Source of the DNA: Escherichia coli
Lineage (GTDB): Bacteria; Pseudomonadota; Gammaproteobacteria; Enterobacterales; Enterobacteriaceae
NCBI RefSeq assembly: GCF_003019035.1
Contig: NZ_CP027447.1
DNA: 64,000 nt
Direction: 5' to 3' (one strand)
Positions 53,867-64,000 of the stretch are shown one piece after another (positions within the stretch are counted from its first letter, which is position 1; every line of letters begins with the position of its first letter). Position numbers and translations under genes: made by a program. The notes beneath the pieces were generated by a model. The model did not search any database and was not told the DNA's origin. It saw only the letters and a program-made list of their open reading frames with translations.

Positions 53867-54724
53867 TTAATTAGCATAAGAATCAGTTGAAGCTTTATAT
53901 TCCATTTTTTTCCTTATCTTATCCTGTGACTTTGACTCTTCTGAACTGATATCGAGAGGCTTAATAAATGGAATTACATCGTAAGAAATAGCCGTATCAT
54001 CTGACAAATTATAAATATTAATATCTTCTACATTATCACGCATAAAACGGAAAAATGGTAAGATTTTAAACAAATCCCTACTCAATTCCGAGGGCATAGG
54101 ATTGTTACTTTCGTCATAGAAACGAGTACAACTACCAGTTAAATCAAGACCAGAACAAATAATCCGCGCATACTTCAGCGAATAGGCTATTTGGATTGCA
54201 GCAAAGGCAACGGTATGGCATGAACAATAACCGAGATTAATATCCTTGCAAAAGCCAACCAGACGACCTTTTTTAGAAAAAGGTACAGAAATCAGGAGCT
54301 CTTTATGAATTCGGCTCAAAATATTAAACTTAATCTTCTTAATCAATCCACCTTTTTCTCTGCGGTAAAATGAACGTAGTACCAGGCAGTTTTGAAGGAT
54401 GTACCGTTTATCTTCTTCAGAAGCATGTTCATAAACATCAACATTTACGATGGTATAACGACTTCTCTGGCTAAATTTATAAAAATCATCACGTCGTTGA
54501 TGTAAAAAGCGAACATCAGTAAGTACATAAATATACGGAATAATATTATGACTTAATAGATATTGCGCAGAACCATTGACAGCAATAACATCCCTTGTCT
54601 GCAGCACTGACAATGGTGTTTTTTGCGATGTGGGGCCGGAAAGAAAAATAATAACATCATCAGACGTTTTACTTTCTATCAGGTTCTCAACATCTTTTTT
54701 GCCAATGTATCTAATATTCTTCAT
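53867..54724 (-). CDS. waaZ: LPS core biosynthesis protein WaaZ
   Basis: 285-aa ORF MKNIRYIGKKDVENLIESKTSDDVIIFLSG...; position between waaY and waaU. Confidence 0.8.
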   Translation of the reverse strand: MKNIRYIGKKDVENLIESKTSDDVIIFLSGPTSQKTPLSVLQTRDVIAVNGSAQYLLSHNIIPYIYVLTDVRFLHQRRDDFYKFSQRSRYTIVNVDVYEHASEEDKRYILQNCLVLRSFYRREKGGLIKKIKFNILSRIHKELLISVPFSKKGRLVGFCKDINLGYCSCHTVAFAAIQIAYSLKYARIICSGLDLTGSCTRFYDESNNPMPSELSRDLFKILPFFRFMRDNVEDINIYNLSDDTAISYDVIPFIKPLDISSEESKSQDKIRKKMEYKASTDSYAN

Positions 54725-54795
54725 GATAAACCTGTGAAATAAGAACTCCGCATAGAAATGTCCTGATGAAGACGTTTAAACGTAAGACGTTTACA

Positions 54796-55494
54796 TTATC
54801 GTGCTGGCTTCCCTTTCAAACGCCGCATAAGATTACGTATTTTTTTACGATAAACTAAAATATAATAACCGAGATCTTTAATCTCATTCTTAATACCATA
54901 ATGTCGCTCTAAATCAATACGATCTTTCGCTTTACGTTGTGCAGATGCCCGTTTTCCTGAAAGATCAATAATACGTACTTCACCATTTTCAATAATAAAA
55001 TTACCGCGGTGAGGATCACCAGATACCATACCATGTTTGTGCAATGAACGGATTGATTGTTGAATTTTATTTTTTAACGTTTCATCAATGTCGGGGATAT
55101 CACACAACTCTACGCCATCGATATATTCGATAAGCATGATATAAGTATGGACAAAACGTAATGTTTTCCGTTCTGCCAATAAATAAAAATCATTGAGTGT
55201 ATTTAACCCTTCATTTCTTACTTTTTGGGTTTGCTCAAAAAGGCGTTCGTAATAATCACCTTTTAACAGAGACTTAAAGAAACGTTCGTTACGCTTAACT
55301 TTCGGAGAAAAAACCTTAAGAATCAATTTGCCGTAATCGGTATCAATAAGCATAACTTTTGTATCATCAATAGAACGAAAAACCTTGATGATATTTATAT
55401 TATAAGACAAGAAGTCATTTAATACATTGAGATACTTTGAATTGTTTTCATCGGTAAAAACAACCAAGTCTTTGATCTTGCTCTTCTGAATCAT
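54796..55494 (-). CDS. waaY: LPS core heptose(II) kinase
   Basis: 232-aa ORF with kinase-like motifs (HGMVSGDPHRGNFI). Confidence 0.85.
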   Translation of the reverse strand: MIQKSKIKDLVVFTDENNSKYLNVLNDFLSYNINIIKVFRSIDDTKVMLIDTDYGKLILKVFSPKVKRNERFFKSLLKGDYYERLFEQTQKVRNEGLNTLNDFYLLAERKTLRFVHTYIMLIEYIDGVELCDIPDIDETLKNKIQQSIRSLHKHGMVSGDPHRGNFIIENGEVRIIDLSGKRASAQRKAKDRIDLERHYGIKNEIKDLGYYILVYRKKIRNLMRRLKGKPAR

Positions 55495-55511
55495 AATAAA
55501 CCAGTTAAGTG

Positions 55512-56528
55512 TTATTTACGGTAATACTTTCGGCAAAGATAACAGACTCCTGCTATAATTCCTGAGATATAGTTATGCTGCACTAAAAGGTGTTTATATC
55601 TTTTTTTAAATTCAATAATTGATTTTGCATCTCGTGGAGAGTCATCTTTCCATGGTGAATTTTCTAAAGCTATTTTATAGTATTTTACCGATGGATAAAT
55701 TGCCCATTTGTGCCACGGTTTAGTTGCACCTGTATAATGAATAAGCAGAGTACTTTCTGTAATCAGTTTTTTATAGTTTTGATGTGTTTTGTCTTTTAAT
55801 TCACTTTTAATTGTATAAATTGTATTGTACTCACGAGGCAAAAATATTGTCATCCCTTTCAGTAAGACATTCATAACATCCTGATCAGGGTATTTATAAA
55901 CATTATCTTTACTCATAAGAATAGACAACGCTTTTTCGGTTAGTTTTGCGTTAGCCCATTTTTTTAAATCTAAATAAACGACACCGGAATTAAAGTACTG
56001 CCCAAGTAATTCAGGATCAGACAACCTGGATGCCGCCTTTTCCTGCATTGGGTCAACATCTTTAACAACAGCAGCAACCGCTCCGTTTAAATCCAGATAC
56101 AATAGTTGGCTAATATCGCCTTTACAAACAACATCTGCATCAAGATAAAGCAAACGATCAAGCGTTAAACCCAATAATTGAAATGCAAATAAACGGAAGT
56201 ACATTGCTCTTGACCAGACTTGTGTACAAGGCAAGCACTGAAGATTATCAGTATTTATTCTATAAAGTGTGATTCTTAATTGGTATTGCTCAGCAAGTTT
56301 TGCGACTTTTTGAAAGAAATCGTCGCTATAAACATCAGCAATAATATAAAAATCAAGATTAACATGTCGATTATTGATGACAATTGAAGTAATGGATACA
56401 CCTACAGCATCAAGATAATTTGCATCGACACCATAGGCAACATTTAAACTTTCAGCAGTATTTTCATCAATAAGCCTAAAATCCCAAGCTTTAACTTTAT
56501 CTATCTCTATGGCAGGAAATGAGTCCAC
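55512..56528 (-). CDS. waaJ: LPS outer-core alpha-1,2-glucosyltransferase (GT8)
   Basis: 338-aa ORF with GT8 features (DADVV DxD-type motif, YFNSGV); paralogous to the adjacent waaO; also called waaR in K-12-type clusters. Confidence 0.8.
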   Translation of the reverse strand: MDSFPAIEIDKVKAWDFRLIDENTAESLNVAYGVDANYLDAVGVSITSIVINNRHVNLDFYIIADVYSDDFFQKVAKLAEQYQLRITLYRINTDNLQCLPCTQVWSRAMYFRLFAFQLLGLTLDRLLYLDADVVCKGDISQLLYLDLNGAVAAVVKDVDPMQEKAASRLSDPELLGQYFNSGVVYLDLKKWANAKLTEKALSILMSKDNVYKYPDQDVMNVLLKGMTIFLPREYNTIYTIKSELKDKTHQNYKKLITESTLLIHYTGATKPWHKWAIYPSVKYYKIALENSPWKDDSPRDAKSIIEFKKRYKHLLVQHNYISGIIAGVCYLCRKYYRK

Positions 56529-60479: not shown

Positions 60480-61596
60480 CTAAACCACCTGTAATGATAT
60501 CTGCCGCTTTCTCCGGCAAGCTATACAAATCCTGAGTATCGGCGTAATACCGAGCATTCTCCGCCCAAGCCATGCGCAATGGAGATTGAGTTAACGCTTT
60601 ACGTAAAACGTCATTTAATTGTTCCTGGGAGAAAGGTTCAGCGATGACCGTTCCACAATTAGCATCCGCAATATAATGCGCGTACCCACATACCGCTGTT
60701 GTTAAAACAGGTAATCCAGCAGTGATCGCTTCAAGAAGAACGATACCCGCGGCTTCCTGATAAGCGGGATGCAGTAATAAATCAGCGGCTGCCATTAATT
60801 CTGACACATCATTGCGACCGGAGAAGAAATGCACATTGCTCCGCACGCCGAGTTTTTCTGCCAGCGCTTCAAACTTTCGCGGTTTATCCTGCCCAACAAC
60901 AAATAACAGCGTATTGTGACGTAATGATTCCGGTAACGATGCCAAAGCTTCAATTGAGCGATCCACACCCTTACGGCCAAAATCTGATCCAACCTGCAGT
61001 AATAAGTTTTGTTGTTCAGTGATGCCATTTTTCTGGCGATAAATTTCACGACTGTTTGGGATTTGCGCGCTGTATTTTCTGTCCGGGTAGATACCAGGAG
61101 GAAGAATTTGAAAACGTTCTGGTTCAGTTTGGTAATGCTTCTGGAAATCGGCGATTTGCTTATCCGTCAGCATCATGAGTTTCGTCGGTTTACCATGCTC
61201 GAAAGTCGCTCGCTCAAATGCAGCATAATGGCGATAGCGTGATGTTAAACGATAGAACAAGCCCTTTTCTTGCGCCACTTTCTCGGCATAACAGACATCA
61301 GCGGCAAAATAAACATCCAGCCCTGGCATCTTATTAAAGCCAACAACCCGATCAGCGGGATGTGCCTTCAGATGGTTTTGAACCCAGGCATAATATTCTG
61401 CATTACGTCCATGGTTAGTATGGGATTTAACCGGTACGCGAATAAGCTCAAATGCATCCGGGCAATCGCCTTCCCACGACTGTGTATATACCCGAACATG
61501 GTGGCCCCGTGTGGCAACTGTTGAGGCTATACGCATAAAGTCACGCTGTAGCCCACCAAATGGAAAATATTTATATAAGCAAAACGCCACGATCAT
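60472..61596 (-). CDS. waaG: LPS core alpha-1,3-glucosyltransferase I (GT4)
   Basis: 374-aa [44 protein letters not shown]...; overlaps waaP by 8 nt. Confidence 0.95.
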
Positions 61597-62627
61597 AATT
61601 GTGCATTCCTGTCAGCTGAAGGGGCATCTTCTGGCAACAGCTTTTCCGTAGCGGCAATGACATCTTCCGCTGGAATAACAGAAAGATATTTTTTGTTGCG
61701 GTCAAGTTCGTGCCGGGTAGGCATTTTTTGATAATTCCCCGCCCAGAACTGAATAATATTCTCGGTCCATGGACGCCAGAATACATGATCAGTAGCCCCA
61801 AACAGGCTAATAACTGGCGTCTTCACCGCCGCCGCAATATGCCCCGGCGCAGAATCCACACCAATAAAGAGCACGGCATGATCAATTAATGCGCCCAGTT
61901 CAGGAAAACGTGTTTTACCGGCAAGGCCGGTAATAGGTTTTATTTGGCAGCCTCGTGCAATTTCATCTACGCAAGCGAGATCATCTGCCGAAGGGCCACA
62001 AGTCAGCACAACCTGATAACCACGATGTTGCAACGCATCGATAACCATAGAAAATTTATCGTTGTCCCAGCACTTAAATAGCTGTCGGGCTGTCGGCTGG
62101 ATAACGACATAATGATCTTTCACGCCCAGTGCATCTAATTCCTGGCGCATTTTCTTCCAGCAATCATCAGCATAACTCATTGTTGTTTCAGTATAAAAAT
62201 CGGTAATACCTAATGGCTCAAGGACCGACAAATTACGCTCAACAATATGTGTACCGTGTATAGGCGCTAAGTGTGTAAAGCTTTTTTTCCAAATGCCATG
62301 CTGCCGATGACCATAAAGCTGCGATATTTTCATCCGTGCAGGTAAACAACGTACCAGCAGGGCCACCATCCACTGATCCGTAAGATTAATGACTAGGTCG
62401 TAATCATTCGCACGCAGAGTTTTTATCAGTGAAAGTGCATTTTTAATTTTATCGAATGTTCCCGCACCTTTATTGCTTATACCATAGAGTGCATTAATTT
62501 CTGGGTTTTCAGATAAAATCGGAATTGTATCCTGGTAAAGCAGCATATCGATTTTAGCGTCGGGATAATTCTGCTTGAGTGTACTGATTACAGGAGTAGT
62601 TAATAACATATCTCCGTGATATCGCAT
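61593..62627 (-). CDS. waaQ: LPS heptosyltransferase III
   Basis: 344-aa product from ATG 62627 (MRYHGDMLLTTPVISTLKQNYPDAKIDMLLYQD...); ORF-track start 62663 is a GTG 12 codons upstream; true start not resolved. Confidence 0.88.
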   Translation of the reverse strand: MRYHGDMLLTTPVISTLKQNYPDAKIDMLLYQDTIPILSENPEINALYGISNKGAGTFDKIKNALSLIKTLRANDYDLVINLTDQWMVALLVRCLPARMKISQLYGHRQHGIWKKSFTHLAPIHGTHIVERNLSVLEPLGITDFYTETTMSYADDCWKKMRQELDALGVKDHYVVIQPTARQLFKCWDNDKFSMVIDALQHRGYQVVLTCGPSADDLACVDEIARGCQIKPITGLAGKTRFPELGALIDHAVLFIGVDSAPGHIAAAVKTPVISLFGATDHVFWRPWTENIIQFWAGNYQKMPTRHELDRNKKYLSVIPAEDVIAATEKLLPEDAPSADRNAQL

Positions 62628-62710
62628 CTTTATGACCAGGATTTTTCGAAATGGCTTTTCCACTAGCGACTCTTTTGTGTGATTGTCTGGTTAAGTTAAG
62701 CAGAAAAAAG

Positions 62711-62722
62711 CACGCTACCGCC
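62711..62722 (-). promoter_or_regulatory. ops element (RfaH recruitment site) within the JUMPStart sequence in the waaQ 5' leader
   Basis: Plus strand reads CACGCTACCGCC, i.e. GGCGGTAGCGTG on the transcribed (minus) strand; lies 85-95 nt upstream of the waaQ start. Confidence 0.85.
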
Positions 62723-63067
62723 CCAGGCTCAACAGCTACCCGAATACTGATAACGCACTTACTTTGACGCGCTAGTGTATCATTTCTTTCGCAGCAATCC
62801 GACCCGAATGATTTTTATACACAAAATATGATTTAATTATAAAAATCATATAGATAAAATTTTGTATACAGAGAATCCAGATATTGTCTATGTAAAGTTG
62901 CAATCCTGGCTGAAATTCAATGAATCGCATAAAAATACAAAAAAATGAAGATCTAGCAGCAGATCAGCTCAAACAGAGACTATTTAAGTCAAAAACGGGA
63001 AAAGTAATGGTAAAGCCACAGCTAAATACATAGAATCCCCAGCACATCCATAAGTCAGCTATTTACT

Positions 63068-64000
63068 ATGCTCGAATTGCTTTACACCGCCCTTCTCTAC
63101 CTTATTCAGCCGCTGATCTGGATACGGCTCTGGGTGCGCGGACGTAAGGCTCCGGCCTATCGAAAACGCTGGGGTGAACGTTACGGTTTTTACCGCCATC
63201 CGCTAAAACCAGGCGGCATTATGCTGCACTCCGTCTCCGTCGGTGAAACTCTGGCGGCGATCCCGTTGGTGCGCGCGCTGCGTCATCGTTATCCTGATTT
63301 ACCGATTACCGTTACAACCATGACGCCAACCGGTTCGGAGCGCGTACAATCGGCTTTCGGGAAGGATGTTCAGCACGTTTATCTGCCGTATGACCTGCCC
63401 GATGCACTTAATCGTTTCCTGAATAAAGTCGACCCTAAACTGGTGTTGATTATGGAAACCGAACTATGGCCTAACCTGATTGCGGCGCTACATAAACGTA
63501 AAATTCCGCTGGTGATCGCTAACGCGCGACTCTCTGCCCGCTCGGCCGCAGGTTATGCCAAACTGGGTAAATTCGTCCGTCGCTTGCTGCGTCGTATTAC
63601 GCTGATTGCTGCGCAAAATGAAGAAGATGGTGCACGTTTTGTATCACTGGGCGCAAAAAATAATCAGGTGACCGTTACCGGTAGCCTGAAATTCGATATT
63701 TCTGTAACGCCGCAACTGGCTGCTAAAGCAGTGACGCTGCGCCGCCAGTGGGCACCACACCGCCCGGTATGGATTGCCACCAGCACTCACGAAGGCGAAG
63801 AGAGTGTGGTGATCGCCGCACATCAGGCATTGTTACAGCAATTCCCGAATTTATTGCTCATCCTGGTACCCCGTCATCCGGAACGCTTCCCGGATGCGAT
63901 TAACCTTGTCCGCCAGGCTGGACTAAGCTATATCACACGCTCTTCAGGGGAAGTCCCCTCCACCAGCACGCAGGTTGTGGTTGGCGATACGATGGGCGAG
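63068..64000 (+). CDS. waaA: Kdo transferase (3-deoxy-D-manno-octulosonic acid transferase), 3'-truncated by the window edge
   Basis: Open frame from ATG 63068 to the window end; translation MLELLYTALLYLIQPLIWIRLWVRGRKAPAYRKRWGERYGF...; absent from the ORF track because no stop is in the window. Confidence 0.9.
   Translation, partial: MLELLYTALLYLIQPLIWIRLWVRGRKAPAYRKRWGERYGFYRHPLKPGGIMLHSVSVGETLAAIPLVRALRHRYPDLPITVTTMTPTGSERVQSAFGKDVQHVYLPYDLPDALNRFLNKVDPKLVLIMETELWPNLIAALHKRKIPLVIANARLSARSAAGYAKLGKFVRRLLRRITLIAAQNEEDGARFVSLGAKNNQVTVTGSLKFDISVTPQLAAKAVTLRRQWAPHRPVWIATSTHEGEESVVIAAHQALLQQFPNLLLILVPRHPERFPDAINLVRQAGLSYITRSSGEVPSTSTQVVVGDTMGE

Follow-up and report, generated by a model that had tools for sequence, protein, structure and literature searches.

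Background

JUMPstart is a 39-bp element that is located upstream of polysaccharide gene clusters. Other operons that are controlled by RfaH and possess ops sites are hly, kps and tra. The pause of RNA polymerase at ops is set mainly by the sequence of the DNA and of the hybrid and is prone to backtracking.

The 12-nt consensus sequence of ops is GGCGGTAGnnTG (PMC12791035). For the waaQ operon, control by RfaH through ops has been described (PMC6358824, PMC8745692, PMC5449661), PMC9765446 likewise states that the waa operon is controlled by RfaH, and a dependence of the distal genes on RfaH and ops was reported for the waa/rfa operon of E. coli K-12 and Salmonella (PMC5449661, PMC6358824). The leader of this operon contains in addition the rirA gene (b4760), which is annotated in K-12 as a 73-nt noncoding RNA at 3808166-3808238. 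According to reviews from the discovering laboratory, the RNA binds RfaH together with RNA polymerase in an ops-dependent manner and lowers RfaH-dependent expression (PMC6358824, PMC5736990, PMC8745692); the effects of RirA were described for overexpression (same three references). RNA 3' ends of K-12, determined by Term-seq under three conditions, have been tabulated by Adams et al. 2021 (PMC7815308).

The region analyzed in this study is very probably the RfaH-controlled JUMPstart/ops leader of the waaQ operon and at the same time the rirA gene. No feature of the sequence was at odds with this reading. The presence, integrity, position and conservation of the elements were determined here, whereas the transcription start site, the RfaH dependence, the activity of RirA and the RNA 3' ends are taken from the literature on K-12, and the same behaviour would be expected in the present strain by analogy.

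The waaA-waaQ divergent control region

The window, i.e. the whole stretch of 64 kb that was analyzed, contains waaQ and waaA as a divergent gene pair, with waaQ starting on the minus strand at the GTG codon at 62663 and waaA on the plus strand at the ATG codon at 63068.

61593-62663, minus strand: waaQ, from the list of open reading frames, encoding heptosyltransferase III of the GT9 type (Pfam PF01075, E = 3.6e-80)

The ORF coordinates confirmed that the interval 62664-63067, to which the preliminary description had assigned the element, is exactly the 404-bp intergenic gap between these genes. According to the ORF list and the annotation of the best-matching genome, waaQ opens the waaQGPSBOJYZU operon, which comprises ten genes and reaches down to about 52761. 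The segment showed 100% identity to that of E. coli SCU-301, the best-matching complete genome. Of 5426 complete E. coli genomes, 5424 contained a match to the region, which was always flanked by rfaQ and waaA among the matches listed. Alignment with K-12 MG1655 revealed 95% identity over the region, the differences being clustered in the AT-rich middle of the gap. The locus thus represents the control region between the divergent waaA and waaQ genes of E. coli, in a K-12-like allele and linked to a waa core cluster of the K-12 type. The GC content of the waaQ operon amounts to 0.37 versus 0.49 for the window, as expected for targets of RfaH and H-NS. An intact rfaH gene of 489 nt is present in SCU-301; rfaH lies outside the 64-kb window.

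Two observations were made elsewhere in the window. The genes waaJ, waaY and waaZ are intact ORFs (53867-56528, minus strand), whereas rfaJ, rfaY and waaZ are annotated as frameshifted in SCU-301, which means either that the window originates from a different strain or that the SCU-301 assembly contains indel errors. Moreover, an Rfam match to naRNA4 (RF02564, nucleoid-associated noncoding RNA 4) was detected at 1942-2020 on the plus strand with 71.6 bits at a cut-off of 59.5.

The JUMPstart and ops element of the waaQ leader

The waaQ leader carries the following elements, which are given in window coordinates.

62711-62749, minus strand: JUMPstart element of 39 nt (Rfam RF01707), with ops as its 3' end
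62711-62722, minus strand: ops element GGCGGTAGCGTG, an exact match; its non-template DNA would be the RfaH loading site by analogy with the K-12 literature
62713, minus strand: G10 of ops
62712, minus strand: U11 of ops, the pause position

The 12-mer GGCGGTAGCGTG was found exactly as previously described, at 62711-62722 on the minus strand, and is the sole exact copy in the 64-kb window. It matches the published consensus at every position, lies on the coding (non-template) strand of waaQ and is situated 45 nt downstream of the 5' end shared by RirA and waaQ. By chance, about 0.008 exact 12-mers are expected in the window by arithmetic, and 0.28 were obtained from shuffles when one mismatch was allowed. 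The RF01707 model was matched over its full length (1-38 of 38) with 53.1 bits versus a gathering score of 35, corresponding to E-values of 1e-10 locally and 2.6e-9 across the whole window, and this match is the only JUMPstart in the 64 kb. The element is part of the 5' UTR of an LPS operon; it follows the annotated start site and precedes waaQ by 47 nt. Within the element, an inner hairpin with a 5-bp stem (CGGGU/GCCUG) is predicted at 62723-62743, directly 5' of ops. A second candidate, GGCGATAGCGTG at 61230-61241 on the plus strand, was rejected as an ops site; it has a mismatch at position 5, is located antisense inside waaG and is of a kind of which chance alone provides 0.28 copies.

To assess the conservation of the leader, 43 loci from Enterobacterales were collected by a tblastn search with WaaQ, and the whole waaA-waaQ gap was aligned for 25 species of Enterobacteriaceae. 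The sequence GGCGGTAG was found 53-78 nt ahead of the waaQ start in most of the 43 loci, and of the 25 aligned leaders, 23 contain this 8-nt ops core, whereas those of two Siccibacter species lack it. All pairs of the inner stem are retained in every aligned sequence that possesses the element, with an exchange between A-U and G-U at 62741. Among E. coli, JUMPstart and ops are identical in all five aligned strains, which were drawn from both classes of leader alleles that are described below. The two Siccibacter leaders have kept the promoter, AAGAG and GTG and are devoid of both JUMPstart and ops. In two Superficieibacter genomes and one unclassified Enterobacteriaceae MAG, about 1.6 kb is inserted between waaA and waaQ, with no ops near the gene.

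The identification of a JUMPstart/ops element put forward in the preliminary description is accordingly borne out by the RF01707 match above the cut-off, by the 95% identity to K-12 and by the published control of waaQ by RfaH through ops. The element is an intact and ordinary JUMPstart/ops in the waaQ leader, of a well-characterised and already known kind.

Predicted promoter, leader and start codon of waaQ

The remaining parts of the waaQ leader and the sequences preceding it were delimited by means of the same alignment.

62774-62782, minus strand: candidate extended -10 region TGaTACACT of waaQ and rirA, with TG at 62781-62782 and the hexamer at 62774-62779; it precedes 62767 by 6 nt
62797-62802, minus strand: TCGGAT at the -35 position, separated by a 17-nt spacer; invariant alignment columns
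62664-62710, minus strand: distal leader of 47 nt between ops and the start codon, including the Shine-Dalgarno-like AAGAG at 62670-62674, 6 nt before GTG

The pattern TG.TACA.T is invariant in all 25 species, and its position fits the annotated 5' end of RirA, which suggests that TGaTACACT is the promoter of waaQ and rirA. TCGG (62799-62802) is likewise invariant across genera; TCGGAT as a whole is a poor match to TTGACA and may represent a weak -35 region or a factor site. A consensus scan for promoters and terminators in the interval 62500-63200 yielded one promoter-like site, which lies inside waaQ, and no terminator. The scan misses the candidate promoter, an extended -10 region that lacks a good -35 region, and likewise a branched helix. 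From the start site to the GTG codon the waaQ leader comprises 104 nt (62664-62767). The distance between ops and the start of waaQ, which had been estimated at about 90 nt, has to be corrected to 47 nt with respect to GTG 62663, the start implied by the coordinates of the preliminary description, and to 83 nt with respect to the ATG annotated in K-12.

The K-12 record places the start of waaQ at this ATG (62627 in the window), 12 codons downstream of GTG 62663. Several lines of evidence argue for GTG 62663 as the real start of waaQ: AAGAG and GTG are invariant in 25 of 25 species; the K-12 ATG position reads CTG in Serratia, Pectobacterium and Brenneria; the tblastn matches of WaaQ begin at residue 1 in most genera; and residues 7-12 of WaaQ (KILVIK) align with the N-terminal strand of WaaF (residues 2-7 of 1psw) and also with 3tov, a strand that would be removed by the K-12 start. 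The K-12 waaQ gene is therefore probably misannotated and 12 codons too short.

The waaA side and sequence variation in the gap

Two further conserved stretches were recognized between the waaQ promoter region and waaA.

63000-63047, plus strand: conserved block adjoining waaA, with TGGTAA (63008-63013), 17 nt and TAGAAT (63031-63036); candidate waaA promoter
62917-62945, no strand assigned: conserved island TTTTTTTGTATTTTTATGCGATTCATTGA of 29 nt, identical in both classes of E. coli leader alleles

The block at 63000-63047 is near-invariant across 16-25 species, apart from a variable 6-7 nt within the spacer. The 92 bp adjoining waaA are identical in five E. coli strains from both allele classes, and about 75 bp are nearly invariant across genera. 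Since the sole variable stretch falls into the spacer, as would be seen with promoters, TGGTAA and TAGAAT with their 17-nt spacer are predicted to form the waaA promoter. The earlier suggestion that the same gap also holds this promoter appears reasonable. A literature search found no mapped waaA promoter, and the supplements of PMC7815308 contain no entry for waaA. A conserved RNA structure in the waaA leader was considered and discarded; the RNAalifold consensus reached -0.15 kcal/mol with 8 weak pairs, and the conservation is one of primary sequence.

The island TTTTTTTGTATTTTTATGCGATTCATTGA is largely conserved in Salmonella and Citrobacter, whereas its flanks are divergent, AT-rich and variable; no convincing promoter match was obtained for it on either strand. 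An ORF of 52 amino acids at 62772-62930 (minus strand) was rejected as a gene, as it is located upstream of the start site in the variable middle of the gap with 29% GC and is not conserved between the E. coli alleles.

The waaQ promoter-leader region of E. coli, at 62664-62782 in the window, occurs in two classes, with 953 genomes at least 95% identical to the window (K-12-like) and 4467 genomes in a band of 80-90% identity. The latter band, about 88% in the sampled rows, comprises the allele of O157, SE11 and Nissle. The divergence begins about 92 bp from waaA (about 62979), which implies that the variable waa segment extends into the gap and leaves JUMPstart and ops untouched.

The RirA RNA and the predicted folding of the leader

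The rirA gene and the structural elements predicted for its transcript are located as follows.

62695-62767, minus strand: rirA counterpart of 73 nt, from the K-12 alignment; its 5' end is the waaQ transcription start
62746-62760, minus strand: 5' arm of an outer helix, pairing with the ops RNA; predicted for the 73-nt RNA in both the minimum-energy and the centroid fold
62708-62721, minus strand: 3' arm of this helix, formed by ops positions 2-12 together with CUU
62704-62709, minus strand: U6 run directly past ops, from the sequence

The rirA counterpart is identical to that of K-12 in 72 of 73 bases and has the same placement relative to waaQ and waaA. The single difference is located at 62741 within the JUMPstart stem, where A in K-12 is replaced by G in the window and an A-U pair becomes a G-U pair, so that pairing is retained. 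RirA begins 45 nt upstream of ops, spans JUMPstart and ops, and has its annotated end 16 nt past ops; this 3' end of the 73-nt RNA rests on the K-12 annotation and the reviews. The preliminary description had mentioned a small RNA from the waaQ 5' UTR and had assigned its origin to the segment that separates ops from the waaQ start. Such an RNA does exist (rirA, b4760; PMC5736990), but it originates from the 5' end of the waaQ mRNA.

In the fold of the 73-nt RNA, the outer helix encloses the JUMPstart hairpin, giving a branched, G-U-rich helix of 20 pairs that is followed by the U6 run. When the alignment of 25 species was evaluated, the 20 pairs were formed in 90.6% of cases versus 33-52% in slid controls, and the 14 outer pairs in 88.1% versus 25-60%, values that were reached by at most 1 of 500 shuffles. 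Compensatory changes from G-C to A-U were detected in Cedecea and Enterobacter sp. Ag1. The U-run is retained in most genera and absent in Kosakonia, Buttiauxella and Escherichia sp. ESNIH1. The support for a conserved outer helix is nevertheless moderate, not strong, because other causes account for the invariance of the ops arm, the G-U richness tolerates transitions, the structure was derived from the same sequence, and the z-score of the fold is -1.64. Within these bounds, the predicted helix together with the U6 run resembles an intrinsic terminator.

In the predicted fold of RirA the ops RNA is hidden in a helix, which is not easily reconciled with reports that RirA binds RfaH in an ops-dependent manner. 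A conserved helix that holds the ops RNA bears on the question of how RirA could bind RfaH.

In vivo 3' ends of the leader RNA and their interpretation

The Term-seq tables list a 3' end in the waaQ leader of K-12 at 3808184 during growth in LB to an OD of 0.4 (62,669 reads), at 3808183 in LB at an OD of 2.0 (116,952 reads) and again at 3808183 under the third condition (75,075 reads) (PMC7815308). The entry for an OD of 0.4 has a Rho score of 1.04, i.e. it is not Rho-dependent, and an intrinsic-terminator score of 6.28, values of at least 3 being suggestive; the authors do not discuss this site (PMC7815308). The two positions correspond to G10 and U11 of ops in the K-12 sequence, with 62713 and 62712 as equivalents in the window. 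They are the only ends called in the leader under the three conditions, and no 3' end is listed at the annotated end of RirA (3808166). An RNA that extends from the waaQ start to 3808183 or 3808184 is 55-56 nt long, and the abundant leader species in vivo may accordingly be this RNA rather than one of 73 nt. The published maps thus put the dominant end of the leader RNA at the ops pause site and not at the annotated end of RirA.

Rather than falling within or just after the waaQ U-run, the ends lie upstream of it. At the ops site of the K-12 rfb leader, a 3' end is likewise recorded at G10 (2113139), with 27,479 reads and a terminator score of 2.83, and no 3' end is present in the same tables at the ops site of wza. 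Since the rfb site lacks a U-run and has the same G10 end, the 3' end is regarded as a general signature of ops and not of the waaQ U-run. The rfb control and the positions of the 3' ends together favour pausing, backtracking or release at ops over a terminator that is specific for waaQ.

These data bear on several alternative views of the leader RNA. The most probable of them holds that the short RNA arises mainly as a by-product of pausing at ops, generated by a paused, backtracked or released polymerase or by trimming back to the pause site, and is not a dedicated trans-acting small RNA; the phenotypes of overexpression would then reflect artificial titration. We consider this possible but less likely than not. 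It agrees with the restriction of the called ends to G10 and U11 under all three conditions, none being found at the annotated RirA end, with the same signature at the rfb ops, with the fact that the effects of RirA were described for overexpression, and with the predicted base-pairing of the ops RNA. On the other hand, 63,000-117,000 reads are of the order seen for stable small RNAs in the same tables and exceed what would be expected for nascent RNA from one paused polymerase, RirA binds RfaH with RNA polymerase directly and in an ops-dependent manner according to the reviews (PMC6358824, PMC5736990), and the leader's 5' arm is more strongly conserved than the function of ops would require.

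An unlikely alternative is that the leader acts as an attenuator gated by RfaH, in which the outer helix and the U6 run terminate most transcripts just past ops unless RfaH has been loaded; the terminated RNA would then be RirA, whose abundance relative to waaQ mRNA would report free RfaH. The occurrence of the helix in both the minimum-energy and the centroid fold, its pairing of 88-91% over 25 species versus 25-60% in slid controls with the compensatory changes in Cedecea and Enterobacter sp. Ag1, and the U-run in most genera are in line with this proposal, as are the score of 6.28 of the K-12 end as an intrinsic terminator without Rho dependence (PMC7815308) and the restriction of the U-run to waaQ among the three K-12 chromosomal ops sites examined. 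However, the mapped ends at G10 and U11 are located inside the 3' arm and before the U-run, not 7-9 nt past the stem, and the rfb ops has the same G10 end with no U-run and a score of 2.83. Furthermore, the z-score of the fold is only -1.64, the lack of variation in the ops arm has other causes and a G-U-rich helix keeps its pairing through transitions by default, the U-run is missing in Kosakonia, Buttiauxella and Escherichia sp. ESNIH1, and the simple terminator scan gave no match.

Somewhat more doubtful still is a switch specific for waaQ, in which the first 20 nt of the transcript would pair with the ops RNA, a pairing that is conserved across Enterobacteriaceae, and the helix and the U-run would let the loading of RfaH choose between the 55-56-nt RNA that contains ops and ends at the pause site and the full operon mRNA. 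The abundant RNA in vivo would then be this short species instead of the annotated 73-nt RirA. If this were true, the leader would be a self-titrating feedback device for RfaH. Finally, the view that the ops match arose by chance or has decayed and lacks a function in this strain has a vanishingly small probability and is effectively refuted, because the exact 12-mer is embedded in a full 39-nt JUMPstart match (E = 1e-10) at a conserved position within the transcribed leader, with the ops core present in 23 of 25 species and JUMPstart and ops identical in five E. coli strains across the alleles.

Proposed mechanism of waaQ operon expression

In an RfaH-controlled JUMPstart/ops leader that also contains rirA, which is the reading preferred here, transcription would start at about 62767 from the extended -10 promoter, and the JUMPstart hairpin would form in the nascent RNA. 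RNA polymerase would then pause at U11 of ops (62712) with the hairpin 12-13 nt behind the 3' end of the RNA, a spacing from which the hairpin may be presumed to assist the pause. The exposed non-template DNA of ops would recruit RfaH, which would render the polymerase resistant to pausing and Rho and couple a ribosome to it. Translation would be initiated at the weak AAGAG/GTG signal 47 nt past ops, and the roughly 10-kb waaQGPSBOJYZU operon with 37% GC would be transcribed in full. In addition, short leader RNAs that carry ops may feed back on RfaH and thereby dampen RfaH-dependent expression, as reported in the literature.

The element explains the full expression of a long, AT-rich and horizontally acquired operon for the LPS core and represents textbook RfaH control. 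The finding that it is intact says only that the strain possesses the standard arrangement.

Comparison with known systems

The waaQ leader of K-12 is the orthologous locus and shares with the window the gene order, the 404-bp gap and the waaQGPSBOJYZU core cluster. In the stretch from the promoter to the start codon, only two bases differ, namely 62741 within the JUMPstart stem and 62770, where the window has G and K-12 has A, 3 nt ahead of the start site; many substitutions distinguish the window from K-12 in the AT-rich middle of the gap at about 62830-62980. With respect to the RF01707 family, the full-length match, the 5-bp stem, the 3' tail that contains ops and the placement within the 5' UTR of an operon for LPS synthesis are in agreement, and no difference was apparent in the modelled part. 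The waaQ copy adds the outer helix and the U-run, both of which lie outside the family model.

The rfb and wza leaders of K-12 display the same GGCGGTAGCGTG 12-mer after the JUMPstart hairpin as waaQ. In the rfb leader, upstream sequence can also form base pairs with the 3' half of ops, whereas a U-run directly after ops is confined to waaQ among the three K-12 chromosomal ops sites examined and is absent from rfb and wza. As in pauses of the his-leader type, which are assisted by a hairpin, the end of an RNA hairpin precedes the paused 3' end by 12-13 nt; the ops pause differs in being set mainly by the sequence of the DNA and of the hybrid and in its tendency to backtrack. Intrinsic terminators likewise combine a helix with a U-run, a combination that in the waaQ leader is recognizable from the sequence and the predicted fold and is positioned just downstream of the paused 3' end.
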